Shown here in pieces: positions 9,608 to 64,000 of a stretch of 64,000 nucleotides of DNA. A model generated the notes under the pieces. That model made no database searches. It saw nothing but the letters and a program-made list of their open reading frames with translations, and was not told the origin of the DNA. Each line of letters starts with the position of its first letter. Within the stretch, counting starts at the first letter, position 1. Position numbers and translations under genes: made by a program. Source of the DNA: an uncultured Gammaproteobacteria bacterium (GTDB lineage Bacteria > Patescibacteriota > Microgenomatia > CAZTEW01); assembly GCA_964612215.1 (NCBI GenBank), contig CAZTEW010000001.1:12432-76431 (forward strand), given 5' to 3'.

Positions 9608-9640
9608 ATATTTTCAGTATAGAAATTTTCCCGGGATTTG

Positions 9641-9868
9641 TCAAAGGGCAGCAAGTTGGCTTTTGCAGCGAGCCGCTTTGTTCTGATGGAGGATGCCTTT
9701 TTTCACCGCCCGGTCAAGCACCGCATAAGCCAATGCCAGGCTTTTTTTGTTTTTCTTAGCCTTAGCTTTTTTAATCGCCATTTTGACCTTGTTTTTAATC
9801 CGGAGATTAACTAATCTACGGCGCTGGTCTTTCCGCAGGGCTTTTTTCGCTGATTGAGTGATAGGCAT
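9641..9868 (-). CDS. rpsT: 30S ribosomal protein bS20
   Basis: 75 aa. MPITQSAKKALRKDQRRRLVNLRIKNKVK..KKGILHQNKAARCKSQLA is canonical S20. Confidence 0.85.
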   Translation of the reverse strand: MPITQSAKKALRKDQRRRLVNLRIKNKVKMAIKKAKAKKNKKSLALAYAVLDRAVKKGILHQNKAARCKSQLAAL

Positions 9869-9888
9869 AGATAAATTCTATCATCTTC

Positions 9889-9917
9889 TTGTTTAATTCA
9901 CAACCAGAGGCTATACT
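9889..9917 (+). promoter_or_regulatory. Sigma70-like promoter for murJ (TTGTTT-17-TATACT)
   Basis: ttgttt at 9889-9894, 17-nt spacer, tatact at 9912-9917, 11 nt before the murJ ATG. Confidence 0.35.
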
Positions 9918-9928
9918 AAAAATACAAA

Positions 9929-16030: not shown

Positions 16031-16067
16031 TTGACAACAATTAGCAGTCGTGTTATGCTTCTGCTAA
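16031..16067 (+). promoter_or_regulatory. Promoter TTGACA-17-TATGCT overlapping a CIRCE-like inverted repeat (TTAGCAGTC-N9-TTCTGCTAA), the HrcA operator
   Basis: ttgaca at 16031-36, tatgct at 16054-59. Inverted repeat at 16041-16067 resembles the CIRCE consensus TTAGCACTC-N9-GAGTGCTAA (1 and 2 mismatches). Confidence 0.5.
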
Positions 16068-16069
16068 AG

Positions 16070-16786
16070 ATGCTTGATGACCGACAGAGAAAGATTTTAG
16101 GCGCTATTATTCAAGAATACACTGAAACCGGCGAGCCGGTAGGCAGCGCCATTCTTGACAAAAAATATAATCTGGGAGTTTCGCCAGCCACCATCAGAAA
16201 CGAAATGGTGGTTTTGAAAAAAGAAGGTTATTTAGAGCAGCCCCACACTTCTGCCGGCCGAAGACCGACCGCCATGGCTTTCCGCTTTTACATCAAAGAA
16301 TTAATGAAAGAAAAGGAGCTTTCGGTGGGTGAAGAGGTAGCGGTTAAGGAAAGAGTCTGGGATTATCGCCGGGAGCCGGAAAAATTATTTCGGGAAATCG
16401 CTAAGGCTTTAGCGCAAAGAACCAAATCCTTGGCAGTAGTGATGACTGACAACGGCGATCTTTATCATGCCGGCTATGCCAACATTCTGGAGATTCCTGA
16501 ATTCTACGACATTGATGTTACCAAAAGCGTTCTTTCTCTTTTGGATGAAGCCAGCCAGTTGACTAGTCTTTTTGCCAAATCTTTAAGCGAAGAACCGATC
16601 CGGGTTTTAATCGGTAATGATTTCGGTCTAGAGGCGTTGTCGTCCTGCAGCCTAGTTTTTGCTGATTTTAAAACCGGACAGGACAAAAGCGGCAAAGTAG
16701 GTGTCATCGGCTCCTGCCGTTCTGATTTTGCCTATGTCATTCCGGTTCTAAGATACTTTGTTAATTTAATTAAAGAGATGGGTTGA
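16070..16786 (+). CDS. hrcA: Heat-inducible transcriptional repressor HrcA (short form)
   Basis: MLDDRQRKILGAIIQEYTETGEPVGSAILDKKYNLGVSPATIRNEM is the HrcA N-terminal wHTH. Start placed at ATG 16070 rather than the track TTG at 16031 because the CIRCE/promoter occupies 16031-16067. Confidence 0.75.
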   Translation: MLDDRQRKILGAIIQEYTETGEPVGSAILDKKYNLGVSPATIRNEMVVLKKEGYLEQPHTSAGRRPTAMAFRFYIKELMKEKELSVGEEVAVKERVWDYRREPEKLFREIAKALAQRTKSLAVVMTDNGDLYHAGYANILEIPEFYDIDVTKSVLSLLDEASQLTSLFAKSLSEEPIRVLIGNDFGLEALSSCSLVFADFKTGQDKSGKVGVIGSCRSDFAYVIPVLRYFVNLIKEMG

Positions 16787-17214
16787 TGATCGTGAAGAAA
16801 AAACAAAACCACCGCTTGGCTGATAAAGATTTGGAAAACAAATGGAAAAGAGCCCTGGCTGATTATGATAATTTGAGAAAACGAGTAGAAAAACAAAGGG
16901 GTGATTTGGTAAAGTTTGCCCATGCCGGCCTGGTTGATAAGCTTTTGCCGGTGCTTGACAGTTTGGAAAAATGTCGGCAACATATAAAAGACAAAGGTTT
17001 GGATTTAACCTGTGAACAGTTGCAAAAGGTTCTCGCCAGCGAAGGCTTAACGGAAATTAAAGCGCAGGATGAAGAGTTTGATCCGGAAAAAATGGATGCG
17101 GTGGAAATGGTCAGGGGTAAAAAAAACAAAGTGGTTGAAGTTGTTTTGAAAGGTTATAATTTAAATGGCCGGGTAATTCGACCGGCCAAAGTAAAAGTTG
17201 GTCAAGGAAATTAA
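16783..17214 (+). CDS. grpE: Nucleotide exchange factor GrpE
   Basis: 143 aa with coiled-coil N-terminus and GrpE C-terminal domain. Located between hrcA and dnaK. Confidence 0.85.
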   Translation: MMIVKKKQNHRLADKDLENKWKRALADYDNLRKRVEKQRGDLVKFAHAGLVDKLLPVLDSLEKCRQHIKDKGLDLTCEQLQKVLASEGLTEIKAQDEEFDPEKMDAVEMVRGKKNKVVEVVLKGYNLNGRVIRPAKVKVGQGN

Positions 17215-19119
17215 ATGACAGACACTAAAAAAGAAAAAATCATCGGCATTGATTTAGGCACCACTAATTCCTGCGTGGCGGTGATGGAAGCTGGCCAGCC
17301 CAAGGTAATTCCGACTGCCGAAGGCGGCAATTTAATTCCTTCGGTGGTCGAGCCGGCTAAGGGCTTGGTCGGCCAAGTAGCCAAGCGCCAGATGATCATT
17401 AATCCCCAAAACACCATTTTTTCGATTAAAAGACTGATGGGTCGGCGCTTTAAAGACAAATCAGTGCAGCAGGATAAAGAATGGCTGCCTTATCAAATTG
17501 CGGCCGGCAAAAACAGCTTGGCTGTGATTGAGGTTGGCGCTAAACAATACACGCCTCAGGAAATTTCCGCCAAAATTCTGCAAAAAGCCAAAGCCGATGC
17601 CGAAGCGTATTTAGGCGAGAAAGTAAAAAAGGCAGTGATTACAGTGCCGGCCTATTTTGATGATTCCCAGCGCAAAGCCACCAAAGAAGCCGGTGAAATT
17701 GCCGGCTTAGAAGTGGTTAGAATTATTAATGAGCCGACGGCGGCCAGCTTGGCTTATGGTTTGGAAAGAAAGAAAGCGGAAACAATCGCGGTTTATGATC
17801 TGGGCGGCGGTACTTTTGATATCTCTATTCTCGAACTCGGCGAAGGCGTTTATGAAGTCAAGGCGACGAATGGCGATACTCATTTAGGCGGCGATGATTT
17901 TGACAAGCGGATTCTAGATTACCTGGCAGAAGAATTTAAAAAAGAGCACAGCGTTGATTTACGCAAAGACCCTCAGGCGTTACAGCGTTTGCGGGATGCG
18001 GCGGAAAAAGCGAAAATTGAACTTTCCAGCGCCCAGGAAAGCGAAATTAACCTACCGTTTATCACCCAAGGCGATTCCGGACCGCTGCATTTAACGCTTA
18101 AATTAAACCGGGCCAAACTGGAACAACTGGTTGACGATCTAATCGAGAAGTCAATGAAGCCGGTGGCATCATGTTTAAAGGATGCAAAATTAACAACCAA
18201 AGACATTGACGAAGTGATTTTGGTGGGCGGCCAGACCAGGATGCCGAAAATTCAGGCAATCGTCAAGAAGTTTTTCAACAAAGAACTGAACAAGAGTGTT
18301 AATCCGGACGAAGTGGTGGCGGTCGGTGCGGCCATTCAGGCCGGGGTTTTAGCCGGCGAAGTCAAAGAAGTTTTGCTGTTAGACGTGACGCCGTTAACTT
18401 TAGGCTTAGAAACTTTAGGCGGCGTCCGCACACCGCTGATTGAACGCAATACCACCGTGCCTACCTCCAAGTCTCAGATTTTTTCTACGGCCGCTGATAA
18501 CCAAACTCAGGTAGAAATTAATATTCTTCAGGGTGAAAGGGCGATGGCAGCGGATAATAAATCTCTCGGCCGCTTTATTTTGGCCGGCATTCCATCGGCG
18601 CCCCGGGGCGTACCGCAGATCGAAGTCATTTTTGACATCGATGCTAACGGTATCTTGAGCGTGACTGCCAAAGACAAGGCGACCGGCAAAGAGCAATCGA
18701 TTAAAATCACCGGTTCCACTGGCCTTTCTGACGATGAAGTCAAAAAAATGACTGAGGAGGCTGATCAATTCAGCGAGGACGACAGGCAGAAAAAAGAACT
18801 GGTGGAAGCGAAAAATACGGCGGATAACCTGTGTTATACCGCGGAAAAGACCCTGAAAGACGCCAGGGATAAAGTCAAAGAAGAAGACAAAAAGCAAATT
18901 GAAGAAGAAGTGAAAAAAGTCCGCGAGATTCTTGCTAAAGAAGGAGTTGGCAAAGAAGAAATTGAAGAGGCTGCCAAAATTCTGGGCGAGGAATTGCAGA
19001 AATTAGGCGCCTCAATGTATCAGCAATCAGCCGACCAGCCAGCGACGGGTCAATCAGAAACAGACCAGAAAGCCTCTCCAGACAAAGATAAAGCTGAAGA
19101 AGGCGAAGTGGTAGAGTAG
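17215..19119 (+). CDS. dnaK: Chaperone DnaK (Hsp70)
   Basis: 634 aa. [33 protein letters not shown] signatures. Confidence 0.95.
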
Positions 19120-20001
19120 ATGCATGGCCCGAAAAGAGACCATTACGATGTTCTAGGAGTTGATCGAAAAGTCTCATCGGTCGAGATTAAGAAAGCTTAC
19201 CGCAAATTAGCGCTGCAATATCATCCGGATCGGAATAAGTCAGCCGACGCCGAGAAAAAATTCAAAGAGATTAACGAAGCCTACGAAATTCTTTCGGACG
19301 CCAAAAAGCGTCAGGTTTATGATCAGTTTGGTCATCGGGCCTTTACTGGTCCGGCTGGTTTTTCTGGCCAGAGTGATTTTACCTGGCCTTTCGGCGGCTT
19401 CAGCCGAACTTATCAATCCAGACCGTTTACCTATACGTATACGAGCCGGGGCGGTGAAAACGACGGCGGCTTTGGCGGCTTTTCCGATCCTTTTGAAATT
19501 TTTGAGGCTTTTTTCGGCGGGGCGTCGCCTTTCCGGCAGAGCCAGAGAATTCCCCGGATAGGCGTTACCTTGGATTTCATGGAAGCGGTTAAGGGCTGTG
19601 AAAAAGAAATCGAAATCGCAGGCAAAAGGAGACAGATTAAAATTCCGGCCGGCGTGGATGATAACACCCGCATTAAATTCAATGATTTTTATTTAGTCAT
19701 TAGGGTGCGGTCGGATAGGGTTTTCCGGCGGGAAGGGGTAAATTTGATTGTCAATCACGAAATTCCTTTTACTCTGGCGGCTCTGGGCGGCATCACTGAA
19801 GTACCGGGGATTGATAGGCCGATCAAAATTAAAATCAGGCCAGGTACTCAGCCGGGAACTTTAGTTCGGCTCCGCGGCCAAGGCGTCGCTTATCTCCGGT
19901 CTCGCCGCCGGGGCGACCAATACATCCGTTTGCTAATTACTATTCCTAAACGTCTTTCCCGCCGCCAGCGCCAGCTTCTCGAAGAATTTGAAAAAATTTG
20001 A
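19120..20001 (+). CDS. dnaJ: DnaJ-family co-chaperone lacking the zinc-finger domain (CbpA-like)
   Basis: 293 aa. J-domain [35 protein letters not shown]-rich region, C-terminal substrate-binding domains. No CxxCxGxG repeats. Confidence 0.8.
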
Positions 20002-20033
20002 CTTTCAGGCTGGCTCTTGCTATAATCCTTTCA

Positions 20034-20058
20034 AATCCTCCTAAGTGAGGATTTTTTA
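20034..20058 (+). terminator. Rho-independent terminator after dnaJ
   Basis: aatcctc-ctaagt-gaggatt stem-loop followed by ttttt. Confidence 0.5.
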
Positions 20059-20080
20059 ATGGGGCTGATTAACCCCGACG

Positions 20081-20650
20081 ATGTTATGGAAACTATTGCC
20101 GAAAACCAGAAAAAGTCATCCTTTGAGCAAACTTTTGCGGCCCTTTTTCGAGGCTAAAAAAAGCAAAAGGCAGCTAGGGAGCTTGTTATTGGCGCTAGTG
20201 ATGACGACCAGTTTTTTAGTGACTTCCGCTTCGGCTTTTGAAACCTATCCGGCTGATGAATTAGTGGTCTTGGCAGCAGAAGTGGAAACAGAGACTCATG
20301 AGAGAAACAAAGCGCCCCTGGAAGAGTTCACTATTTCTCAGGGTTTTTGGGTTCTGCATCCGGCAATTGACTTAAGCGCGCCTCAAGGAACTCCGGTCTA
20401 TTCAATTGAGGCCGGAAAAGTGACCCAAACTGAATTCAGCTACTGGGGTTATGGCAATCAGGTGGTGGTTGATCATGCCAACGGCCTGCAATCTCGTTAT
20501 GCTCATCTTTCCCGGATTACGGTTCAAGAGGGACAGGAAATTAATCAGGGAACAGTGATTGGTTTAGTGGGGGCGACTGGTTTGGCTACCGGCAACCATC
20601 TTCACTTGGAGATTATTGACCAAGGCCAACTAATTAATCCGCAGACTTTT

Positions 20651-20662
<12 letters not shown>
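20081..20662 (+). CDS. Peptidase M23 (LytM-domain) family protein
   Basis: DHANGLQSRYAHLSRITVQEGQEINQGTVIGLVGATGLATGNHLHLEI is the M23 HxxxD..HxH core. N-terminal signal-like segment. Exact start uncertain. Confidence 0.75.
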
Positions 20663-22618
<1,956 letters not shown>

Positions 22619-52660: not shown

Positions 52661-53704
52661 ATGGCAGTTATTAGTGCGAGAACAGAATTTGCCAGCGCCC
52701 TGAATCAGATTTGCGCGGAAAGGGGCATAGAATTAAAAGCGGCTCTAGAATCAATTGAAGCCGCGATTTTAGCCGCTTTTAAGAAAGATTTTGGTTTGGA
52801 AGAGGACTGGGAATACAGTGTCCAATTAGACAAAAATACCGGTCATGCCAAGATTTTCCGGTACTCCGAAGTAAAACCAGAAGACAGGAAAGAAGTAACG
52901 CCGCGGGGTTTTGGCAGAATTGCTGCTCAAACCGCCAAGCAGGTGATTCTGCAAAAAATTCGCGAAGCGGAAAAAAGCGCCATCCTTGATGAATACAAAA
53001 CCAGAATTGATACTTTGGTTAACGGCCGGATTCTCCGCTTTGACGGAGCCAACATCATCTGTGATATTGGTCGCGGGCAGGGCGTGATGTTGCCGGAAGG
53101 CCAGGTGAAAAGCGAGAATTACCGGCCTAACCAGCGCTTGACTTTTTATATTGTCAAGATTGGTGAAACCGAAACTGGGGAACAAGTGATTGTTTCTCGG
53201 GCTGACGAGCGTTTAGTCACCAGTCTCTTTCGCCGAGAAGTGCCGGAAATTGCCTCCGGAGCCGCAGAAATCAAGGCGATTGCCCGGGAAGCCGGTAATC
53301 GGACTAAAATTGCTGTTTTTTCCAATAAACCTGGAGTTGATCCGGTGGGTTCCTGTGTCGGCCAAAAAGGAGTTAGGGTTCAGGCAGTGATTGATGAAAT
53401 TAACAACGAGAAAATCGATGTTATCCAATGGTACGGAGACCCGGCGAAGTTCATTGCCGCCAGCCTGGCGCCGGCAGAAAAAGCCAAAGTTGAACTAAAT
53501 GAGAAAAAGAAGACGGCTTTGGTAACGATTAGCGAGAATCAGCTTTCCTTGGCGATTGGTAAAGAAGGCCAAAATGCCCGCTTAGCCGCTAAGCTGACCG
53601 GCTGGAAAATTGATGTGAAGCCTTCCTCTGTTAAAACTAAAAGAGAGGAGAAACCCCACTCCGCTAAAGCTCCGTTAGGGGTTAAAAAAAGTGAGGCCAA
53701 GTGA
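52661..53704 (+). CDS. nusA: Transcription termination/antitermination factor NusA
   Basis: NusA N-terminal domain (SIEAAILAAFKKDFG), S1 (GRILRFDGANIICDIGRG), KH (VGSCVGQKGVRVQAVIDEI). Confidence 0.85.
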   Translation: MAVISARTEFASALNQICAERGIELKAALESIEAAILAAFKKDFGLEEDWEYSVQLDKNTGHAKIFRYSEVKPEDRKEVTPRGFGRIAAQTAKQVILQKIREAEKSAILDEYKTRIDTLVNGRILRFDGANIICDIGRGQGVMLPEGQVKSENYRPNQRLTFYIVKIGETETGEQVIVSRADERLVTSLFRREVPEIASGAAEIKAIAREAGNRTKIAVFSNKPGVDPVGSCVGQKGVRVQAVIDEINNEKIDVIQWYGDPAKFIAASLAPAEKAKVELNEKKKTALVTISENQLSLAIGKEGQNARLAAKLTGWKIDVKPSSVKTKREEKPHSAKAPLGVKKSEAK

Positions 53705-55131
53705 AAAAACCACCGGTTGTGGCCATTCTCGGTCATATTGATCATGGCAAAACCAGCTTGCTTTCAAAAATCAGAGCTCAGGATTTAACCAAAAAAGAAT
53801 CAGGCGGGATTACTCAGCATATTGGTGCTTATCAGGTAAAGCACCAAGGCCAGACGATTACTTTCATTGATACTCCAGGTCACGTTGCCTTTGCCAAGAT
53901 GCGGGCTCGGGGAGCACAAGTGACTGATTTGGTGATTTTAGTGATTGCGGCTGATGATGGCATCATGCCCCAGACCAAAGAATCTTTGGCGCATATTCGG
54001 GCCGCCAAAACGCCATTCTTGGTGGCGATTAATAAGGTTGATCTAGCGGCAGCCGGACCGCAAAAAGTCAAAGAACAGCTTCAGAAAGAAGGGATTTTAG
54101 TCGAGGATTTAGGCGGCGACGTTGTGGCTGTTGAGGTTTCGGCTAAAACAGGCCAGGGAATTAACGAGCTTTTGGAATTAATCCTTCTTTCCGTGGAGAT
54201 GCAGGAGAAAAAGGTTGATCCGGCAGCTCGTCTGAGAGCCGTCGTGATTGAATCGACGCTTGATCATCGCCGTGGTCCAGTGGCTAGCCTGCTGGTCCAG
54301 GATGGAATTTTGCGCCTCGGCGATGAACTGAAATCAGGCCGGATTGAAGGCAAGGTGAAAGCGATGTTTAACGAAGACGGCCAGAAAATCACTGCGGCCG
54401 GCCCGAGCCAGCCGGCTGAAGTGCTGGGATTTAAGGAAGTACCGCCGGTAGGCAGTCTGGTGAGAAAAGCGCTGGATCCAGCCGCGCTTCAAGATCACTT
54501 TTTCTCAGCGAACGAAGACCGGCTACAGCCAGATCAGACAGCAGTGGAGAAAAAACTTAAAATCATCCTGAAAGCTGATGTTCAAGGCACCCTAGAAGCG
54601 ATTAGCAGCAGTCTGCCGGCTGAAGTTGAGATTGTTGTCGGTTCAGTCGGTTTAGTGACCGAATCTGACGTTCTTTTGGCTGAGACGACGAAGGCGGAAA
54701 TCTTTGGTTTTCGGATTAAAGTGTCGACTAGCGTCGCTAAGCTGGCGAAAACAGAAGCAGTGAAGATCCAAAACTTCAACCTTATTTATGAATTGCTGGC
54801 TGAGATTAACAGGAGAATGATCGAACCAGAGAGAGTTGAAGAAATCCTTGGCCGAGCGGAAATCGTAGCAGAGTTTCAATATAACCAGACAAAAGTGGCT
54901 GGTTGTCGGCTGAAAGAAGGGAAAATCAGAAAGAGCGATTTAGTGCGTCTGCAGCGGGGCAAAGTCATCGTGGCTGAGACCAGAATCAAATCGATGAAAT
55001 ATAAAAAAGAAGACATTGAGCTGGCTAAAGAAGGCCAGGAATTCGGGGTGATTTTCAAATCCGAGCTTGACTTTCAAGCAGGAGATAGTGTATTATCGGT
55101 CGTGTTTCCGAGAAATGAATCAAAATCTTGA
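53701..55131 (+). CDS. infB: Translation initiation factor IF-2 (N-terminally short form, GTG start)
   Basis: G-domain AILGHIDHGKTSLL, DTPGH, NKVD. 476 aa beginning at the G domain. Conserved nusA-infB synteny. Confidence 0.9.
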   Translation: MKKPPVVAILGHIDHGKTSLLSKIRAQDLTKKESGGITQHIGAYQVKHQGQTITFIDTPGHVAFAKMRARGAQVTDLVILVIAADDGIMPQTKESLAHIRAAKTPFLVAINKVDLAAAGPQKVKEQLQKEGILVEDLGGDVVAVEVSAKTGQGINELLELILLSVEMQEKKVDPAARLRAVVIESTLDHRRGPVASLLVQDGILRLGDELKSGRIEGKVKAMFNEDGQKITAAGPSQPAEVLGFKEVPPVGSLVRKALDPAALQDHFFSANEDRLQPDQTAVEKKLKIILKADVQGTLEAISSSLPAEVEIVVGSVGLVTESDVLLAETTKAEIFGFRIKVSTSVAKLAKTEAVKIQNFNLIYELLAEINRRMIEPERVEEILGRAEIVAEFQYNQTKVAGCRLKEGKIRKSDLVRLQRGKVIVAETRIKSMKYKKEDIELAKEGQEFGVIFKSELDFQAGDSVLSVVFPRNESKS

Positions 55132-55969
55132 CCTGGCTTCATTATCATCTTTACTCAGTTCCAGTCAAAGCGCCCTGGTGGTTTTGCCGCCAAGTTCAGG
55201 CTTCGACAGAATTGCCGCCTCTTTGGCTCTTTATTTGGCTCTGAAAAAGGCTGGTAAAAAAGCCGGCATTGCTTGTTCGCAAGCGATGACGGTTCAGTTT
55301 TCTCAGCTAATCGGCGTCGACAAGATTACCGATAAAATCGGCCAACGGGATTTGGTGATTTCTTTTGATTATAAGCAAGATTTGATTGAGAAAGTCAGCT
55401 ACAACATTGAGGATGACAAGTTTAATCTGGTTATTCAGCCCAAGGCCGGTTTTCCGGCGCTTGATCCGAAAACGGTTGCCTATTCTTCCTCAGGTACAGA
55501 CGCGGATTTAATTTTCGTCGTCGGCAGTCAGAAGCTGGAAGATTTAGGTGAACTCTATCAGCAAAATAAGTCTTTTTATCAAAGCGCCGCCGTGGTTAAT
55601 ATTGATCGTCAGGCCGGCAACAGCCAATTCGGCAAAGTCAACTTGGTTGTTTCTCAGGCGGCGGCGGACAGCGAATTAGTGGCGCTGATTTTGAAAGGAT
55701 TAAAACTGGCGATTGATGAAGATATCGTCACCAATCTCTATCTCGGGCTGCAATCAGCCACCGGGAATTTCCAGGCCGCTGAAGTGTTGGCTGATACCTT
55801 TGAGGCGGCGGCTTGGCTCTTGCGTAGCGGTGCCAGGCATTCTCAGTCAACGGCCGTGAAACCAGAACCCCAGCCTGATTCTCAGACTGAGATGGAAAAG
55901 GAAGATGCGGCGGCAGCGTCACCTGACTGGCTTTCACCAAAAATCTACAAAAGTACGAGCAGGGTTTGA
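55115..55969 (+). CDS. Hypothetical protein, possibly degenerate DHH/NrnA-like
   Basis: MNQNLDLASL..LVVLPPSSGFDRIAASLALYLALKKAG has the architecture of DHH phosphoesterases but no clear DHH motif. Sits at the position of rbfA/nrnA after infB. Confidence 0.3.
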   Translation: MNQNLDLASLSSLLSSSQSALVVLPPSSGFDRIAASLALYLALKKAGKKAGIACSQAMTVQFSQLIGVDKITDKIGQRDLVISFDYKQDLIEKVSYNIEDDKFNLVIQPKAGFPALDPKTVAYSSSGTDADLIFVVGSQKLEDLGELYQQNKSFYQSAAVVNIDRQAGNSQFGKVNLVVSQAAADSELVALILKGLKLAIDEDIVTNLYLGLQSATGNFQAAEVLADTFEAAAWLLRSGARHSQSTAVKPEPQPDSQTEMEKEDAAAASPDWLSPKIYKSTSRV

Positions 55970-56017
55970 CGGTAGAGGAACTTCGGAGTAAAATAGATAA
56001 ATCAATTAAGATAAATT

Positions 56018-56287
56018 ATGGCGAAGAAGCTTTCGGAGAAACAGAAGATTATCAAGAAGTTTGCTACCAAAAAAGGTGATACTGGTTCGCCTGAAGTTCA
56101 AGTAGCGCTTTTGAGCCAGCAAATCAAAAATTTAACCAAGCATTTAAAAGAACATAAAAAAGACACTCATTCTCGCCGTGGCCTGTTAACCATGGTGAGC
56201 AAGCGCCGCCGCCTTCTCAACTATCTATCTAAAAAAAGCGAGAAGCGATACCGGGAATTGATTAAGGAACTTAAACTGAAGAAGTAA
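56018..56287 (+). CDS. rpsO: 30S ribosomal protein uS15
   Basis: [57 protein letters not shown]. Confidence 0.9.
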
Positions 56288-58488
56288 TGGCGATTAAGCA
56301 AAAGAAACTAGAAATTGGCGGCAGGGAATTAATCTTCGAAACCGGACACTTTGCGGAACAGGCGAACGCGGCCGTTACCTGCTGTTACGGCGGGACGGTG
56401 GTGCTGGCAGCGGTTGTGGCCGCACCGTGCCGGGAAGAAATTGATTATTTTCCGCTTTACGTTGAATATCAGGAAAAGCTTTATGCTGGCGGCAAGATTA
56501 AAGGCAGTCGCTGGGTCAAGCGCGAAGGCCGACCTTCTGATGAGGCGATTTTAACGGCGCGTTTAATTGATCGCAGTCTCCGGCCGCTCTTCCCTAAAGA
56601 CTATAAGAATGAGGTTCAGGTGGTGGTGACAGTGCTTTCCGTGGACGGCGAAAACGATCCGGAAATTCCCGGTATTTTAGCCGCCTCGGCCGCCCTGGCG
56701 ATTAGCGATATTCCTTGGGACGGACCAGTGGGGGCGATTCGGGTGGGCAATAAAACCAGCACTTTTTTTGCTAACCCGACTTATGGCGACTTAGATTTTT
56801 CTGACATGAATATTATCGCTGCCGCGACCGAAGATAGCTTAATTATGCTTGAGGGTGAAGCGCGCGAGGTCAGTCGCGAACTGGTGACCCAAGCCTTAGA
56901 ATTCAGCCATCAAGAGATTAAAAAAATAGTGAAGGCGATTAAGGAGTTTCAGAAAGAAGCCGGTCGGAAAAAACAGGCGCTGAAGCCGGCAATCGTTGAT
57001 CAAAAAATAAAACAGGCGGTGCAGAAAGAAATTAAAGCCCACTTCGAAAGCTTCAGGGACGGCACGGTGGATTTTGATGAATTTAAAGCCGCCTTAGCGG
57101 AGAAAATGGCAGATAAAAAAGCCGCCATCTTTGCCGAGGAGCTGTTTTTTGAAGCAATACGAGAGGAAATCTTAACCAAAAAAATTCGTTTTGACGGTCG
57201 CAAAGCTGATGAAATCCGGAAAATTACCATTGAAACCGGCATTTTGCCCCGAACCCATGGCTCAGCAATGTTCAAAAGAGGCAAAACTCAAGCTCTGACG
57301 ATTACCACGCTCGGGTCGCCTTCCCTGGAGCAGTTGGTTGAATCAATGACCGGCGAGGAAACGAAAAGATATATGCATCATTATTATATGCCGCCTTATT
57401 CGGTGGGCGAAACCGGCCGTTTCGGCTGGCCATCCAGAAGAGAAGTGGGTCATGGTACCCTGGCTGAGCGCGCTCTGGAACCGGTTTTACCGAGCGAAGA
57501 AGAATTTCCCTATACGATTCGGGTTGTTTCCGAACTGATGTCTTCGAACGGTTCAACTTCCATGGCTTCGGTTTGCGGTTCGACTCTTTCTTTAATGGAC
57601 GCCGGCGTGCCCATCAAGAAACCAGTGGCGGGTATTGCTTTGGGATTGATTAAGAATGAAAAAAGCCATGTGGTTCTCACTGACATTTCAGGCTTAGAAG
57701 ATCACTGCGGCGATATGGATTGTAAAATCGCCGGCAGTCAAGACGGCATCACCGCTCTTCAGATGGATGTTAAGTCGCCGCTGCCATTGAATTTAATCGA
57801 AGAAATTTTCGAACAGGCCGATCAAGGCCGGGCTTTCATTTTGGAGAAAATGATTAAGGCAATGCCCAAATCCAGAACCGCAATTTCTCAATACGCCCCC
57901 AAAGTTGCTGTCATTAAAATAGAGGCAGAGAAAATCGGTGAAGTCATTGGCCCCGGCGGCCGTATGATTAGGCAGATCATCAGCGAGACAGGAGCGGCGG
58001 TTGACGTTAAAGATAGCGGCGAAGTGACAATTTCTGGTCCTCAGGAAGGCGTGAAAAAGGCCAGCGAATGGGTGAAAAATCTGGTTCGGGAAGTCAAGAT
58101 CGGCGAAACTTTTAGCGCTGAAGTGAAACGCATCCAGCCTTTCGGCGCTTTTGTGGAAATTCTACCTGGCAAAGAAGGTTTGGTGCATGTTTCCAAAATG
58201 GCCAACCGTTTTATTAAAGATCCCAGCGAAGTGGTAAGTCTTGGCGATAAAGTCCAGGTGAAAGTGGTAGAAATTGACGAGCGCAAAAGGATTAATCTTT
58301 CCATGATTTTAGATGAGAAGCCGGGTGAGCGTCATTTTTCCGGCCGAGGAGATCAACAGCGCCGGCCGTTTCCGCAAAATCGCTCCCGCTATCCTTCTCG
58401 CCAGTCCTCCCGTTCTGGAGACAGACCGCCTTTCCGTTCCCAGCGTTTTCCACGACCCCGTTCAGACTTCCGCTCCCGGGAAAGATAA
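56287..58488 (+). CDS. pnp: Polyribonucleotide nucleotidyltransferase (PNPase) with R/S-rich C-terminal tail
   Basis: Two RNase PH domains, KH (GEVIGPGGRMIRQI), S1 (GETFSAEVKRIQPFGAFVEI). C-terminal RSRYPSRQSSRSGDRPPFRSQRFPRPRSDFRSRER. Confidence 0.95.
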   Translation: MAIKQKKLEIGGRELIFETGHFAEQANAAVTCCYGGTVVLAAVVAAPCREEIDYFPLYVEYQEKLYAGGKIKGSRWVKREGRPSDEAILTARLIDRSLRPLFPKDYKNEVQVVVTVLSVDGENDPEIPGILAASAALAISDIPWDGPVGAIRVGNKTSTFFANPTYGDLDFSDMNIIAAATEDSLIMLEGEAREVSRELVTQALEFSHQEIKKIVKAIKEFQKEAGRKKQALKPAIVDQKIKQAVQKEIKAHFESFRDGTVDFDEFKAALAEKMADKKAAIFAEELFFEAIREEILTKKIRFDGRKADEIRKITIETGILPRTHGSAMFKRGKTQALTITTLGSPSLEQLVESMTGEETKRYMHHYYMPPYSVGETGRFGWPSRREVGHGTLAERALEPVLPSEEEFPYTIRVVSELMSSNGSTSMASVCGSTLSLMDAGVPIKKPVAGIALGLIKNEKSHVVLTDISGLEDHCGDMDCKIAGSQDGITALQMDVKSPLPLNLIEEIFEQADQGRAFILEKMIKAMPKSRTAISQYAPKVAVIKIEAEKIGEVIGPGGRMIRQIISETGAAVDVKDSGEVTISGPQEGVKKASEWVKNLVREVKIGETFSAEVKRIQPFGAFVEILPGKEGLVHVSKMANRFIKDPSEVVSLGDKVQVKVVEIDERKRINLSMILDEKPGERHFSGRGDQQRRPFPQNRSRYPSRQSSRSGDRPPFRSQRFPRPRSDFRSRER

Positions 58489-58499
58489 GCAAGTCATTC

Positions 58500-58528
58500 T
58501 TGACAGGTTATATAAATCTTATATAATA
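58500..58528 (+). promoter_or_regulatory. Sigma70-like promoter for the RHH-PIN operon (TTGACA-16-TATAAT)
   Basis: ttgaca at 58500-05, tataat at 58522-27. Confidence 0.4.
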
Positions 58529-58536
58529 GACTTACT

Positions 58537-58785
58537 ATGCAGACGCAGATGATTAATTTTATGATTCCCAGCGAACTGCTTCGACAGGTAGATAGTTTGG
58601 CAGCAAGAGAATTCCGCAGTCGTTCTGAATTGCTGCGCGAGGCGGCTCATTGCTATCTGAAGAGGCAAGAAGCGCGAAGAAAACTCTTTGCTTCTATTAG
58701 AAAGACAGCTGCTAGGCTTGATCTTTCTGAAGAAGAAGCAATGAATCTGGCTGAAAAGGCGAAGCTTTGGGCGAGAGGCAAGTGA
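58537..58785 (+). CDS. Ribbon-helix-helix antitoxin (CopG/VapB-like)
   Basis: 82 aa. FMIPSELLRQVDSLAAREFRSRSELLREAAHCYL is an RHH fold. Confidence 0.6.
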   Translation: MQTQMINFMIPSELLRQVDSLAAREFRSRSELLREAAHCYLKRQEARRKLFASIRKTAARLDLSEEEAMNLAEKAKLWARGK

Positions 58786-59231
58786 GGGTTGTTTTTGACG
58801 CTAATATCTATATTAGTTTTTTCTTAACTCGAGGGCCGACAATTACTTCGATTTTTTCTTACTGGGAGAAAGATTGTTTTAGTGTTTTGATTTCCCCAAT
58901 CATTATTGAAGAAATCGAAACCGCATTTCAGTATTCAAGGATAAAAGAAAGGTTAAAGGCGAAAGACTTTCTCAATCTTTATTTGCTTCTAGAAGAGGCA
59001 GAAATGATTTATCCGCATTCAAAAGTGGGAATTATTAAAGACCTAAAAGACAATATGTATCTGGAATGCGCTCAGGACGGCAGCGCTGATTATTTAATTA
59101 CCGGCGATAAAAAACACCTTTTGCCATTAAAAAAATTCGGCAGAACCAAAATTATTTCACCACGAGAATTTGTGGCAGAAATCGGTCGTGATTGTCGTGA
59201 TATAATGAAAACATGCCCAATGAGCTTCTGA
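58782..59231 (+). CDS. PIN-domain toxin (VapC-like, TIGR00305-type)
   Basis: VRVVFDANIYISFFL.. with downstream acidic residues. GTG start overlapping the antitoxin stop in GTGA. The track ORF uses TTG at 58767. Confidence 0.6.
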   Translation: MRVVFDANIYISFFLTRGPTITSIFSYWEKDCFSVLISPIIIEEIETAFQYSRIKERLKAKDFLNLYLLLEEAEMIYPHSKVGIIKDLKDNMYLECAQDGSADYLITGDKKHLLPLKKFGRTKIISPREFVAEIGRDCRDIMKTCPMSF

Positions 59232-60274
59232 TTGAAATTCAGAAATTAAGAGAAAAAATTAAAAAAGCCGAATTGCCAGCCGGATTGCTAGAAAAGACAG
59301 CCGCAATGGTGGCGCGTCTGAACCGAGTGACTAAATTCGCTGGTTATTCAACGGAGTACGAACGGATGAGCCGCTATCTTGATTGGGTGACGGCTCTTCC
59401 CTGGCACCAGCGAACTGAAGACATCCTTGATCTGGAAAAAGCCAAAGCAGTTCTTGACAAGAGCCACTATGATTTAGATGAGATTAAAGAAAGAATTCTG
59501 GAGCACTTGGCCGTTTTGAATTTGCGGCGCCAGCGATCAGCCGGCAAAGACCGGCCGCCAGCTTTGCGAGCGCCGATTCTTTGTTTAGTGGGTTTAGTGG
59601 GGACGGGTAAAACCAGCTTGGGTGCTGCCATCGCTGAGGCGATGGGGAGGAAATTTATCAGAATTCCTTTCGGCGGCATGGGTTCAGCTTTGGAGTTGCG
59701 GGGTCAATCCCGGCTTCACCCGGAATCTGAACCAGGCCAAGTGATTAAGGCCCTGCGGCGCTGCGGCAGTAAAAATCCGGTCTTGCTTTTAGATGAAATT
59801 GACCGAGTGGCAGAAGAGACCAGAAGCGATATCATGGGCGTCCTGATCGAGCTTCTGGATCCAGAACAAAATCTGGCTTTCAGCGACTATTTTGTTGATT
59901 ACCCGTTTGATTTGTCAGAAGTTCTTTTTGTGGCTACCGCCAACAACACCACTAACATTTCAGCGCCGGTGCTGGACCGGCTCGAACCATTGTCAATGCC
60001 TTCATATTCTGACGGAGAAAAAATTATTATCGGCCGCGATTATGTTTTGCCTCAGGTTTTAGCGGAAACCGGCTTAACCAAAGCAGACTTGAAGATCGAC
60101 GACGCTGTCTGGCCGCAGATTGTCCGGCCCTTGGGCTATGATGCCGGTATTCGGACCCTGGAGCGAACGATTAAAAGGATTTGCCGGAAAGCGGCGAAAA
60201 TGATTGTCCAGAAAAAAGGTCAAGAATTTCAAATCACCACCGAAAATATTAAAGAATATTTATCCCAATGGTAA
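59213..60274 (+). CDS. Lon-like AAA+ ATPase module without protease or N-terminal LON domain
   Basis: 353 aa. Aligns to the Lon central region: ..ILEHLAV.., Walker A GLVGTGKTSLG, Walker B LLLDEIDR, LDPEQN, TANN, sensor and alpha domain. No S16 protease domain. rnj starts immediately after. Confidence 0.65.
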   Translation: MPNELLIEIQKLREKIKKAELPAGLLEKTAAMVARLNRVTKFAGYSTEYERMSRYLDWVTALPWHQRTEDILDLEKAKAVLDKSHYDLDEIKERILEHLAVLNLRRQRSAGKDRPPALRAPILCLVGLVGTGKTSLGAAIAEAMGRKFIRIPFGGMGSALELRGQSRLHPESEPGQVIKALRRCGSKNPVLLLDEIDRVAEETRSDIMGVLIELLDPEQNLAFSDYFVDYPFDLSEVLFVATANNTTNISAPVLDRLEPLSMPSYSDGEKIIIGRDYVLPQVLAETGLTKADLKIDDAVWPQIVRPLGYDAGIRTLERTIKRICRKAAKMIVQKKGQEFQITTENIKEYLSQW

Positions 60275-61569
60275 AAGTAACTCCTTTAGGCGGCGTTGCC
60301 GAAGTCACCAATAACCTGTTTGTTTACGAAACCGAGAAAGAGGCTTTAGTGGTTGATTGCGGCGCTGGGTTTCCTGAAGAAGAAGAGGGAGAAAATAAAA
60401 TCCTGATTCCGGACTTTGCTTATTTACAAACCATCAGAAAAAAACTCCGCGGTTTGATCATTACTCATGCTCACTTTGACCATTACGGCGCCATTCCTTA
60501 TCTTTTGGAGCAGTTTAATCTGCCGGTTTTTGGCGTCCGGATCAGCTTAGAATTCCTGAGGGCAAAGATGATTGACCTGAAAATCAAAAAAGAAACAAAA
60601 CTGCAACAACTGTCGTTTCGAAAAAATGTTAGCCTCGGGAGTTGGAAAATAACGCCTTTTTTAGTTAACCATTCGGTTCCGGATGCTTCTGGTTTAGCGA
60701 TTTCGACGCCAGCCGGGAAGATTTTCCATGTCAGCGATTTTAAATTTGACTTGACGCCGGTTGACGGCCGGGTTTTTGATTTTCAAAGCTGTATTCAGCT
60801 GGCCCAGAGCGGCGTTTTGGCGCTTTTCTCAGATTGCCTGGGCGCGTGCGAAGAAGGCTTTACCCAGACCGAAAAGAAAGTTGGCCAAACCCTTTTCTCC
60901 TTGATGGCCAAAGCGCCGGGCCAGCTTCTAATGACCACTCTTTCCTCTAATATTCACCGGCTGCGGTTAATGATTGAGGCCGCCAGAGTCTTAGGCAGGC
61001 AGATAGTACCTGTTGGCCGCTCGATAGAAACCAGCTTGGCAATTGGCGAGCGCTTGGGTTATCTGCCTCGGTTGTCGAGAAAAAAACAGAAAAATTCCCG
61101 CCGCTTAGTCTATTTAGTCGCCGGCAGCTATGGTCAGGAGAATTCCAACCTGATGCGTGTCGCTCAGGGAAAGCATCCGGGGTTGAAATTAGAAAAAGGA
61201 GCGACGGTGATTTTTTCCGCTGACCCTTCGCCGCCCAACACCGAAGCTAAAGTGAACAAACTAGTTGACCTCTTAACACTCCAGGGAGCTAGGGTTCATT
61301 ACTACGAAATTCAGGAAAATCTGCATGCTTCCGGACATGGTTCAGCTGGAGACCTTCAGCTGTTAATGGCTTTGGTGAAGCCGAAATTTTTCGTTCCCAT
61401 CGGCGGTTGTCCGCGGCACATGCGGGCTTACGCCGCCTTAGCCAAGGAAATGGGGATCGGGCCGGAAAGGGTTTTCGAACTTTTGCCGGGCGAGAGTTTG
61501 ATTTTCGGACTACACAGTGCCAGGCGGGGAACGGTCATCGAGCTTAAAAAGAAAACGATTTTAGTGTAG
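60268..61569 (+). CDS. rnj: Ribonuclease J (metallo-beta-lactamase/beta-CASP)
   Basis: HAHFDHYGAIPYL (HxHxDH), ..SDFKFD.., FSDCLGA align with RNase J. Confidence 0.8.
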   Translation: MVKVTPLGGVAEVTNNLFVYETEKEALVVDCGAGFPEEEEGENKILIPDFAYLQTIRKKLRGLIITHAHFDHYGAIPYLLEQFNLPVFGVRISLEFLRAKMIDLKIKKETKLQQLSFRKNVSLGSWKITPFLVNHSVPDASGLAISTPAGKIFHVSDFKFDLTPVDGRVFDFQSCIQLAQSGVLALFSDCLGACEEGFTQTEKKVGQTLFSLMAKAPGQLLMTTLSSNIHRLRLMIEAARVLGRQIVPVGRSIETSLAIGERLGYLPRLSRKKQKNSRRLVYLVAGSYGQENSNLMRVAQGKHPGLKLEKGATVIFSADPSPPNTEAKVNKLVDLLTLQGARVHYYEIQENLHASGHGSAGDLQLLMALVKPKFFVPIGGCPRHMRAYAALAKEMGIGPERVFELLPGESLIFGLHSARRGTVIELKKKTILV

Positions 61570-61587
61570 AATGGTGGTGGAGGCAAG

Positions 61588-63633
61588 ATGAGTCAGCGCG
61601 GTCGCAGGAAAAACCCTTATAAGCTTAAATTAAAAAAAGAATCGCTTTATGCTATCGCCAGCATTTTTCTTTTTTTCAGCGGCGGCTTGGTGATGCTTTC
61701 TTTTTCCCAGCAAGGAGAGATTTTAACCAAAGTCCATTTGCTTTCGCGCCAGCTTTTTGGCGTTGGCTCTCTTTTTTTGCCTTTTCTTTTGGTAGCGGCG
61801 GGGTTAATGCTGACTAACCTGCAATGGCGCCTTTGCCGGCCGCATGTTTTAGTCGGCGGCTTCCTGATGGCTTTAAGCTTTATCGGAGTTTTAAAAACCG
61901 GTAGCGTCGGCCAAGTGGTTTTTCAAAATATGAGCGCTTTGATTACCGGTTTTGGCGCTTATTTAGTTCTTCTGGCTGCCGGTTTAATCGGCTTTATTGT
62001 TCTTTTTGAAACTTCGTTTGAAGATATTTTCCTGTTTTTTGGCCAACTTTTGGCCCGGCTGAAAGAGAAAACGCCGGCGATGCCTAAAAAAGGATCATTG
62101 ATTCTAGCGCGGCGAGTCAAAAAAGAATCAGGCCACGAAGATAAAGAGCTGGAAAAGACAACGGCGGCTGTCCAGCCAGTTTCTTCAACCAGTCAAGGAA
62201 TTTGGGAATATCCACCTCTTGATTTATTAGTGAACGAAATCGGCGGTGAGGCTGATCGTGGTGACGTCAAGCAAAATCAGGCTGTCGTTGAAGAAACACT
62301 GGCTTCTTTTGGTGTTCAAGCTAAGGTCGCCGAAGTGAATTATGGACCGGCGGTCACCCAATATGCCTTGGAAATCAGCCGCGGCACCAAGCTTTCTAAA
62401 GTGACCGCTCTTGCTAATGACCTGGCTTTGTCTTTGGCCGCGCCGACCGGTCAAATTAGAATTGAAGCGCCGATTCCGGGCCGTTCTTTAGTGGGCGTGG
62501 AAGTTCCGAATAATTCTTTGGAAATTGTGCCTTTGAAAAAAATTCTCGCCTCTAAAGAAATGAAAAAAGAGAAGCATAAATTAAACGTGACTTTAGGGTT
62601 GGACGTTTCCGGCCGGCCGATGATTGCTAATTTGGCCAGAATGCCTCATGTTTTGATTGCCGGCGCGACCGGTTCAGGCAAAACCTGCTGTTTGAATTCT
62701 TTTATTGCCACTATTCTTTTTCGGGCCAGTCCCGAAGAAGTCAAATTAATTTTAATTGATCCGAAGCGAGTCGAATTGGTGTCCTATAATGGCATTCCTC
62801 ATCTGCTGACACCGGTGATTACTGATCCGGAACAGGTAATTTCTGCTTTGAAATGGGCGATTAGCGAGATGGATCGGCGTTATAAGCTTTTTGCCCAGGT
62901 CGGGGTACGCAACATTGACAGCTATAACCAACTTTCTGGCTTTCAGGCGTTGCCCTATATGGTGATTATCATCGACGAACTGGCGGATATTATTCTTTTT
63001 GCGCCGGCTGATGTTGAGGACGCTATTACCCGGATTGCGCAAATGGCGCGCGCGACCGGAATTCATCTGGTAATTTCTACTCAAAGACCGTCAGTTGACG
63101 TTCTGACTGGCCTGATTAAGGCCAACATTCCCTGTCGAATTGCCTTTAATGTTACGTCTGCGGTTGATTCCCGGGTAATTCTGGATATGGGGGGTGCGGA
63201 AAAGCTCCTGGGCCGCGGCGACATGCTTTATATTCCGCCGGATCAGGCGAAACCGAGCCGGATTCAAGGCACCTATGTTTCTGACGCGGAAATTCAGAAA
63301 CTGATTGAGTTTTTGAAAAAGACCGGTGAGCAGCCAAAATATATCAATGAAGTCACCACCAAATATAAACCTCTGACAGTCACCGAAGAAGAAACTGAAA
63401 AGGACGATTTGTTTGACGAAGCCGTCCGGGTAGTTTGCCGCTATGATCGGGCTTCGGCTTCCCTGTTGCAGCGCCGGCTATCAATTGGTTATGCCCGGGC
63501 GGCCAGAATTTTAGACCAGCTGCAAAAAGCAGGCTTGGTCGGTCCGCCGGAAGGTAGCAAGCCGCGAGAGGTTTTGGTTCGCAGTCCGGAAGAATACTTC
63601 AGCCGCAGCGCTGGTTGGCGGACTGACGCTTAG
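61588..63633 (+). CDS. ftsK: DNA translocase FtsK/SpoIIIE
   Basis: N-terminal TM domain. Motor Walker A GATGSGKTCCLN. C-terminal gamma wHTH (LLQRRLSIGYARAARILDQL). Confidence 0.9.
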   Translation: MSQRGRRKNPYKLKLKKESLYAIASIFLFFSGGLVMLSFSQQGEILTKVHLLSRQLFGVGSLFLPFLLVAAGLMLTNLQWRLCRPHVLVGGFLMALSFIGVLKTGSVGQVVFQNMSALITGFGAYLVLLAAGLIGFIVLFETSFEDIFLFFGQLLARLKEKTPAMPKKGSLILARRVKKESGHEDKELEKTTAAVQPVSSTSQGIWEYPPLDLLVNEIGGEADRGDVKQNQAVVEETLASFGVQAKVAEVNYGPAVTQYALEISRGTKLSKVTALANDLALSLAAPTGQIRIEAPIPGRSLVGVEVPNNSLEIVPLKKILASKEMKKEKHKLNVTLGLDVSGRPMIANLARMPHVLIAGATGSGKTCCLNSFIATILFRASPEEVKLILIDPKRVELVSYNGIPHLLTPVITDPEQVISALKWAISEMDRRYKLFAQVGVRNIDSYNQLSGFQALPYMVIIIDELADIILFAPADVEDAITRIAQMARATGIHLVISTQRPSVDVLTGLIKANIPCRIAFNVTSAVDSRVILDMGGAEKLLGRGDMLYIPPDQAKPSRIQGTYVSDAEIQKLIEFLKKTGEQPKYINEVTTKYKPLTVTEEETEKDDLFDEAVRVVCRYDRASASLLQRRLSIGYARAARILDQLQKAGLVGPPEGSKPREVLVRSPEEYFSRSAGWRTDA

Positions 63634-63645
63634 AAAGGAGGAGAA

Positions 63646-64000
63646 GTGCAAAAAGCAGGCGAGCTTTTGAAAAAAAACCGTCAGCGCAAAAAATTATCTT
63701 TGACGACAGTTGCCAAGAGAACTAAAATTAGAAAAGACTATTTAATCGCCCTGGAAGAAAGCCGCTATCAAGATCTGCCTAGCGGCACCTATATTCAAGG
63801 ATTTATCAAAAACTACAGCCAGGTTTTAGGCGTTGATCCCCAGCCGTTTTTAGCGGTTTTTCGCCGGGATTATCGGGAGAAAAACAGGCCGACATTTAAA
63901 ACTTCCCAACTGGAGGGTTTTTACTGGACGCCAAAAACCACTCTACTGGCGATTTTCATTCTCGGCCTCCTGTTTTTTTTCGGCTATCTCTTCTGGCAGT
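63646..64000 (+). CDS. rodZ: RodZ-like HTH (XRE) membrane protein, 3' end cut by window edge
   Basis: AAGGAGG then GTG at 63646. VQKAGELLKKNRQRKKLSLTTVAKRTKIRKDYLIALEESRYQDLPSGTYIQGFIKNY then TM. Runs off the window. Not in the ORF track. Confidence 0.5.
   Translation, partial: MQKAGELLKKNRQRKKLSLTTVAKRTKIRKDYLIALEESRYQDLPSGTYIQGFIKNYSQVLGVDPQPFLAVFRRDYREKNRPTFKTSQLEGFYWTPKTTLLAIFILGLLFFFGYLFWQ

Follow-up and report, generated by a model that had tools for sequence, protein, structure and literature searches.

A protease-less, LonA-derived ATPase family of Candidate Phyla Radiation bacteria and a toxin-antitoxin cassette recently inserted beside it

The locus described here lies in a window of 64 kb (contig CAZTEW010000001.1 of assembly GCA_964612215.1, positions 12,432 to 76,431; all coordinates below are those of this window) and comprises four overlapping genes on the plus strand, encoding an antitoxin of the ribbon-helix-helix (RHH, CopG-type) class, a PIN-domain toxin, a stand-alone ATPase related to the Lon protease, and RNase J. 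The antitoxin gene (58537-58785, 82 aa) matches RHH_1 (PF01402, E 5e-8), and the toxin gene (58782-59231, 149 aa, GTG start) matches PIN_3 (PF13470, E 6e-18) and TIGR00305 (E 7e-18, 64.9 bits vs a cut-off of 29). At their junction, GGCAAGTGAGGG, the RHH stop TGA (58783-58785) and the PIN start codon share the letters GTGA. The PIN frame is also open from an upstream TTG (58767), and the use of a 4-nt overlap by homologous pairs supports GTG as the start. The Lon-like gene (59213-60274, 353 aa) begins at an ATG that lies 19 nt inside the toxin frame, and rnj (60268-61569, 433 aa) begins within the last codons of the Lon-like gene, its ATG overlapping TGG-TAA (60269-60274) as ATGGTAA over 7 nt (junction CAATGGTAAAAG). 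These open reading frames (ORFs) and overlaps, as given by an earlier sequence-only reading, were all found again in the sequence. The same reading had treated the four genes as one translationally coupled operon. The comparison with relatives points instead to three units that probably just stand side by side, namely a mobile toxin-antitoxin cassette, a housekeeping LonA-type ATPase that has no protease and would act as a non-proteolytic remodeller, and rnj, the next gene of an old housekeeping block.

The Lon-like gene encodes the AAA+ part of Lon only, i.e., an AAA domain (PF00004) followed by Lon_lid (PF22667), as had been proposed from the letters. Against the endopeptidase La model TIGR00763 the protein covers profile positions 255-572 of 795 and scores 334.7 bits (cut-off 608), and against NF008053 it reaches 279 bits (cut-off 891). 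It begins at the equivalent of E. coli Lon residue ~247, and the ORF ends at the end of the lid. Searches of the 64-kb window with Pfam, tblastn and profile hidden Markov models matched neither the LON N domain nor the S16 protease domain (PF05362, Lon_C). The tblastn query was an E. coli Lon sequence, whose ATPase part is 40% identical to the Lon-like gene of the window, and the N-domain and Lon_C profiles were built from 52 full-length Lons. Likewise, both profiles remained without a match within 10 kb of 113 related loci, a search that covered 1.5 Mb in all.

All lines of comparison place the module with LonA, the S16 protease represented by E. coli Lon, B. subtilis LonA and human LONP1. 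Sequence identity to the modules of E. coli and B. subtilis is ~40%, and the module shares with them the three-helix bundle, the nucleotide-binding domain, the Lon lid, Walker A and B, sensor-1, the arginine finger and sensor-2. Each of the 37 sequence matches in the PDB at E <= 1e-3 is a LonA or LONP1 chain, the best being 3m6a at 1e-84, and no LonB or LonC chain occurs among them. The AlphaFold2 model of the protein (predicted local distance difference test, pLDDT, 87.9) superposes on LonA and LONP1 chains and covers the E. coli Lon fragment 6n2i (residues 235-584) near end to end, with TM-scores of 0.87 and 0.91. This crystal fragment, which spans the same residues as the Lon-like protein, comprises the NB and H domains and, from the HI(CC) domain, its last three helices (PMC6722904). 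In a tree of 196 modules, which was calculated by neighbour-joining on our own distance matrix and has no bootstrap support, a weakness of the case made here, the 35 stand-alone proteins fall into a single clade, the sister group of the canonical LonA and tandem modules together. On the basis of these sequence comparisons, the family is classified as a monophyletic, LonA-derived, AAA+-only family of bacteria of the Candidate Phyla Radiation (CPR), including Microgenomates, and not as a member of an unrelated AAA+ clade, which the sequence-only reading had left as a possibility.

The tandem modules of the tree belong to a different kind of protein. P0121, P0122, P0124, P0126, P0127, P0132 and P0137 (890-1380 aa, one named Candidatus Dependentiae) have no N domain and carry two to three LonA-type AAA+ modules in tandem with one Lon_C, so that they look like multi-tier Lon proteases. 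They resemble the stand-alone family in their LonA-related modules, the missing N domain and, in some cases, degenerate pore loops, whereas they differ from it by keeping the protease domain and the Walker A motif GPPGVGKT. An origin of the stand-alone family as a detached tier of such a protein was considered and rejected. Although the summed scores of the tandem proteins against the family profile are very high, the individual modules reach only 160-276 bits, below the 315-343 bits of canonical LonA, and this low score per module, GPPGVGKT and the clustering with LonA together show that the tandem Lons are not the source of the family.

The absence of the flanking domains is a property of the whole family and not of this one gene. 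The 120 best database matches are 60-94% identical to the window's protein and 321-389 aa long (a single one is shorter than 346 aa), and those with a name belong to Microgenomates, Shapirobacteria, Pacebacteria or the 'Patescibacteria group'. At all 113 related loci the AAA+ module is encoded alone. A scan of a genome collection found the module alone in 29/29 CPR-type loci and the arrangement N domain-AAA-protease in 55/55 non-CPR loci, and a metagenome scan with the family-specific Walker A pattern returned at least 474 relatives, of which the best 80 were analysed. The ratio of nonsynonymous to synonymous substitutions (dN/dS) of the Lon-like gene is 0.09-0.14, similar to that of pnp (0.08) and of rnj, and indicates purifying selection. 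The missing domains are the only point in favour of a truncated, pseudogenized or misassembled full-length lon. Hundreds of homologues of the same length in independent assemblies, the dN/dS values, the precise and conserved C-terminus and the start of rnj inside the last Lon-like codons in four independent assemblies leave this explanation practically no chance, and a full-length Lon at this position in relatives, which the sequence-only reading had named as a possible refutation, does not occur at the 113 related loci.

In the databases, members of the family are labelled 'AAA family ATPase' or, wrongly, 'ATP-dependent Lon protease', and literature searches did not turn up any account of LonA proteins without a protease as a family in CPR. 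Separately, several of the loci with CPR gene order and a CPR-type Lon ATPase (L005, L013-L015, L017, L020, L023-L026, L029) are titled 'uncultured Gammaproteobacteria' or 'Weeksellaceae'. These titles are probably taxonomic mislabels, or the contigs were mis-binned.

The motifs of the protein fall into those kept, those rewritten and those gained relative to LonA. Walker A reads GLVGTGKT (residues 127-134, 59591-59614, plus strand) and is invariant in 120/120 members; it is a signature of the family, as LonA has GPPGVGKT at this place. Walker B (LLDEID), the sensor-1 Asn, the trans-acting Arg finger (R256) and sensor-2 (R314) are invariant or nearly so. As the residues for ATP binding and hydrolysis are thus retained, including the Arg finger, the protein most likely forms a ring and hydrolyses ATP.

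The opposite holds for the loop by which Lon grips its substrate. Pore loop 1 of LonA carries an aromatic-hydrophobic pair (Tyr398-Ile399 in E. coli Lon). Within the corresponding region of the window's protein (RGQSRLHPESEPG, residues 163-175, 59699-59737, plus strand), aligned residue by residue to Bacillus subtilis and Yersinia pestis Lon, the Tyr-Ile/Val of LonA is replaced by His-Pro. All 55 full Lon loci share the loop RGHRRTY[IV]G[AS][LM]PG, whereas TY[IV]G occurs in none of the stand-alone proteins of the related loci in which the loop was found; these have RGQSR[LV][HRQ]PDAE[PV]G, RGQSKT[TSA]PEAEPG, RGQTKSSAYAQPG and others. Among the 120 members, the Tyr position is occupied by His (46), Arg (44) or Tyr (20), followed by Pro in 106 cases and then by Asp-Ala-Glu. 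Loss of the protease thus coincides with a loosened constraint on the two residues by which Lon holds its substrate and draws it in.

A feature not seen in LonA is the end of the chain in a free Trp (Trp353, last residue, 60269-60271, plus strand). It falls where the LonA linker to the protease would begin and ends the protein in 112/120 members, 108 of which share the form [FY]-[LIV]-x-x-W-COOH (consensus EFLPxW-COOH). Only the Microgenomates subfamily has the terminal Trp; more distant subfamilies end differently or with disordered tails. It is probably a contact point for a partner.

From this pattern of loss and retention, the Lon-like ATPase is proposed to be a non-proteolytic, ATP-driven remodeller or chaperone-like factor and not a degradation motor. 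With its three-helix bundle, nucleotide-binding domain and lid it would still assemble into an ATP-hydrolysing ring, and the C-terminal Trp would contact its partner. What it has lost is the N domain, the protease domain (S16) and the polypeptide-pulling loop with its aromatic-hydrophobic pair. Such a remodelling role is favoured by the intact motor, the degenerate pore loop, the lack of a nearby protease and the groESL neighbourhood in some lineages. Analogies exist for both aspects. Degenerate, non-translocating AAA+ rings are known from D1 of p97/Cdc48 and D2 of NSF, and chaperone activity has been reported for proteolytically inactive Lon, i.e., an active-site mutant of yeast Pim1. The Lon-like ATPase resembles the former in combining an intact nucleotide site with a non-canonical pore loop, and the latter in being a Lon scaffold that could act without proteolysis. 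However, p97 D1 and NSF D2 are tiers of two-ring proteins and inactive Pim1 is a point mutant of a complete protease, whereas the product of the Lon-like gene is free-standing and by nature without a protease.

The explanation that has to be weighed most carefully against a remodeller is a split Lon, in which the AAA+ ring docks, perhaps by its C-terminal Trp, on a peptidase from another gene and thereby rebuilds an ATP-dependent protease. This peptidase could be an S16 domain standing alone or some other protease of the self-compartmentalised kind. The intact ATPase motifs and arginine finger would suit such a motor, as would a chain that ends exactly at the linker between the AAA+ and protease parts of LonA and that is closed by Trp in nearly all members. 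HslU and the proteasomal ATPases carry C-terminal docking motifs, which the Trp end recalls. Nevertheless, Lon_C was matched neither in the window nor near the 113 loci, although split genes usually remain adjacent in at least some lineages. In addition, the TY[IV]G loop common to all full Lons is never kept in the stand-alone proteins, and the terminal Trp is restricted to one subfamily. A split Lon, which the sequence-only reading had offered as one of two possibilities, is therefore weakened within the loci searched and appears unlikely. One candidate for a relic protease, the 195-aa C-terminal extension of the Dojkabacteria protein P0157, turned out to be a low-complexity, Ser/Asn-rich tail without similarity to Lon_C (hhalign probability 0.05).

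Several points nevertheless weigh against the remodeller. Its function is read from motifs and gene neighbourhood only. The Tyr that persists in 20/120 close members, and the Phe found at the pore-loop position in several distant ones, mean that some translocating ability is possible in part of the family, which also suits a split Lon. A conserved free aromatic residue at the C-terminus would fit docking onto a separately encoded peptidase as well, and an S16, ClpP or HslV partner may be encoded elsewhere in the genome, beyond the window and the 113 loci that were searched.

The gene neighbourhood of the family is in large part conserved. Its main gene order is nusA-infB-DHH-rpsO-pnp-lonAAA-(udg)-rnj-...-ftsK. 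In the window, pnp, encoding PNPase (56287-58488, plus strand; assigned by ORF, synteny and Pfam matches of relatives), is the conserved neighbour 5' of the Lon-like gene, and ftsK (61588-63633, plus strand) ends the conserved block. In 62/82 evaluable loci (76%), the gene immediately upstream is pnp, in the same orientation, and in 63/87 (72%) rnj follows within 1.5 kb downstream. In many Microgenomates loci, a gene for a family-4 uracil-DNA glycosylase (UDG, ~215-230 aa) stands between the Lon-like gene and rnj (e.g., L087, 6995-7684, and further L099, L105, L123 and L152); it is absent from the window. In other CPR lineages (9/82 loci, 11%), groES-groEL is divergent from the Lon-like gene across a spacer of 100-190 bp.

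RNase J is ordinary, rnj being the next gene of an old housekeeping syntenic block. The protein matches PF00753 (MBL), PF22505 (beta-CASP) and PF07521 (RMMBL), and its HxHxDH motif appears in the translation as THAHFDH. Since its match to the RnjA model NF047419 covers positions 2-429 and ends there out of 549 (score 363, cut-off 820; for TIGR00649, 338 with a cut-off of 400), it has no C-terminal (oligomerisation) domain. In the lineage of the window, including L085-L087, RNase J measures 432-437 aa.

The conserved order of pnp, Lon-like gene and rnj would be explained if the ATPase were a partner of PNPase and RNase J that assembles or remodels a degradosome in CPR bacteria. The frequencies of both neighbours hold across lineages whose Lon-like proteins are ~50% identical and whose synonymous sites are saturated, the 7-nt overlap with rnj is common to the window, L085, L086 and L091, and the RNase J of these CPR bacteria is without its oligomerisation domain. 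Yet the same block contains the unrelated genes nusA, infB, rpsO and ftsK, the UDG gene often intervenes before rnj, and some lineages pass straight from the Lon-like gene to ftsK. Furthermore, the lineages with divergent groES-groEL have no RNase nearby, and the Lon-like gene seems to have its own promoter. A role in RNA decay is thus considered quite improbable. A bolder version, in which the stand-alone ring docks via its Trp on PNPase and/or on RNase J without its C-terminal domain and forms the ATP-driven part of a CPR RNA-degradation complex, is a long shot. DEAD-box helicases serve in other degradosomes. If the bolder version were true, the Lon ATPase would be a new type of AAA+ machine in which degradation has been swapped for the role of these helicases.

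The probable promoter of the Lon-like gene is marked by a TATAAT box only 6 nt 5' of its ATG (59201-59206, plus strand), contained in the sequence GATATAATG, which is common to the window, L085 and L091. L085 and L091 carry either no insertion at this site or a different one. Many family loci have a box resembling a -10 element shortly 5' of the ATG, and an exact TATAAT at 3-14 nt 5' of the ATG was found in 10/100 of them, compared with a background of 0.5%. With this -10 box, the gene probably gives rise to a leaderless mRNA or one with a very short leader. No CIRCE/HrcA element (up to two mismatches per arm) was detected in the groES/Lon-like spacers or 5' of the Lon-like gene in the window. 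As a separate observation, the motif TTTTGTCAAGTA recurs in several spacers of the groES-groEL-divergent loci L013-L016, L023, L025, L026, L028 and L029 (~9500-11000).

Between pnp and the Lon-like gene, the RHH and PIN genes form part of a 710-bp cassette (58490-59199) that appears as an insertion relative to L085, with blastn break points at 58489 and 59199. The pair is predicted from its domains to be a type II toxin-antitoxin module with PIN as the ribonuclease toxin. All 30 PIN homologues compared keep the acidic residues D6, E44, D90 and D109, and with this tetrad the toxin is probably active. The cassette brings its own promoter, TTGACA-16 nt-TATAAT (58500-58527, plus strand), which agrees with the sigma-70 consensus at 12/12 positions, is the sole perfect one in 55900-63800 and is kept in L091. 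A perfect 8-nt palindrome, TTATATAA-N3-TTATATAA (58508-58526), lies over the promoter spacer and the -10 box. Promoters of type II toxin-antitoxin systems that regulate themselves are commonly built in this way, and by analogy the palindrome is a candidate operator for the RHH antitoxin. PADLOC assigned none of the four proteins to a defence system and gave marginal matches only (E >= 7e-5).

The cassette is likewise ordinary. It follows VapBC-type modules (RHH/CopG with PIN; PIN_3, TIGR00305) in having the antitoxin first, the 4-nt overlap, the acidic tetrad of the toxin, an own promoter with palindrome, a variable genomic location and horizontal spread. It deviates from them in the C-terminal extension of the toxin by 11 codons of host DNA, through which the toxin overlaps the next host gene. 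PIN homologues have 131-148 aa and cover ~88% of the query, and similarity to the window's protein stops ~17 residues short of its stop codon. The last ~11 codons are supplied by native DNA on the far side of the cassette end. This native DNA includes GATATAATG, the sequence also found 5' of the Lon-like gene in L085 and L091. As the PIN frame continues past the cassette, the 19-nt overlap with the Lon-like gene is a by-product of the junction. The toxin frame would have lost its original end at insertion and now extends into the next gene by accident and not by regulatory design. The translational coupling of PIN and Lon-like gene that the sequence-only reading had deduced from the overlap is accordingly not upheld, as the overlap arises from native DNA that carries the -10 box of the Lon-like gene itself.

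The mobility of the cassette is evident from the closest relatives. L085, the closest one retrieved, has a Lon-like protein 94% identical to that of the window and flanking DNA 90-95% identical (92-96% in the blastn alignment that gave the break points), but neither RHH nor PIN, the stop codon of pnp being 6 nt from the Lon-like start. The loci L086 and L091, which represent one population (Lon-like protein 80% identical), have the cassette at the same site. Its DNA is 91.9% identical between the window and L086, whereas identity is only 75-82% for pnp, the Lon-like gene, rnj and ftsK on either side. The synonymous divergence (dS) of RHH and PIN from this population is 0.27-0.28, compared with 1.1-1.7 for the flanking genes. 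With such a low dS, the cassette must be far more recent than the DNA around it and must have been passed on by horizontal transfer. In L086 and L091, two further small ORFs lie between PIN and the Lon-like gene. Among the 113 family loci, these two are the only ones with an RHH-PIN pair beside the Lon-like gene. RHH_1 genes 5' of PIN_3 are found in L088-L091, and an RHH_1-PIN_3 pair with the same 4-nt overlap occurs without a Lon-like gene in three unrelated contexts (transketolase/beta-lactamase; MFS transporter/hydrolase/UvrD; response regulator/PPDK). Its insertion between pnp and the Lon-like gene is thus a recent event, and one of this lineage only.

Under these circumstances, the functional operon of toxin-antitoxin pair, Lon-like gene and RNase J gene assumed by the sequence-only reading is not supported: the arrangement is not conserved among relatives, being absent from L085 and limited to one population, and the pair exists elsewhere independently. 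The same evidence bears on the suggestion that the protease-less ATPase is a dedicated unfoldase or adaptor of the adjacent RHH-PIN pair. In its favour are the adjoining genes with their 19-nt overlap in the window, the degradation of antitoxins by Lon in model bacteria, and the possibility that transcription from the cassette promoter continues into the Lon-like gene. Against it, the cassette is missing in L085 and in 111/113 family loci, PIN and the Lon-like gene are two ORFs apart in the one other population that carries it, the same pair occurs elsewhere without any Lon-like gene, the cassette is far younger than its flanks, and the overlap consists of native sequence. Synteny therefore largely refutes this role, which is very improbable.

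One reservation concerns the separateness of the three units in this particular genome. A terminator scan detected none that would stop the cassette promoter from reading into the Lon-like gene and rnj, so that read-through into both genes can take place, and a regulatory link between them and the cassette may have been acquired here. For work on toxin-antitoxin systems in general, the locus calls for caution, as adjacency and overlapping frames mimic an operon although they result from the recent insertion of a cassette.

Some further observations were made in the cassette-bearing population and in the window. In L086 (1475-2145) and L091 (615-1285), a 92-aa ORF and a 135-aa PIN protein of PF01850 lie between the DHH-like gene and rpsO. 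With this second toxin-antitoxin-like pair, the conserved housekeeping block seems to collect cassettes in its spacers. The PIN gene of L086 (~4900-4915) has a T-run 1 nt shorter than that of L091 (4001-4450) and of the window, by which its frame is split, so that the gene is either a pseudogene of this strain or misassembled at the homopolymer. In the window, the tail of PNPase (58300-58488) comprises ~60 residues, is rich in Arg, Ser and Pro and is apparently disordered (...GERHFSGRGDQQRRPFPQNRSRYPSRQSSRSGDRPPFRSQRFPRPRSDFRSRER). Further upstream, IF-2 is short (53701-55131, 476 aa) and is followed by a 300-aa ORF (55067-55969) without a Pfam or NCBIfam match, the counterparts of which in L001 and L003 match DHH (PF01368); the two frames overlap by 65 nt if the TTG at 55067 is the real start. 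A chaperone cluster lies ~37 kb upstream (16031-22414), with DnaK at 17215-19119 and GroEL at 20677-22317 on the minus strand, and small ORFs beside DnaK may be GrpE and DnaJ.

By definition, Lon joins an ATPase and its protease in one chain, and to our knowledge the protease is retained in each of the recognised subfamilies (A, B and C). What is new at this locus is neither the toxin-antitoxin cassette nor RNase J but a protease-less LonA family with a rewritten pore loop, which is real and widespread in CPR. Since one of the database labels for it is 'ATP-dependent Lon protease', metabolic and proteostasis reconstructions may credit CPR genomes with a protease that is absent. A whole radiation of bacteria with tiny genomes keeps the LonA motor alone, and the strong purifying selection, the rewritten substrate-gripping loop and the invariant C-terminus imply that this motor performs a non-proteolytic job indispensable to these reduced cells.

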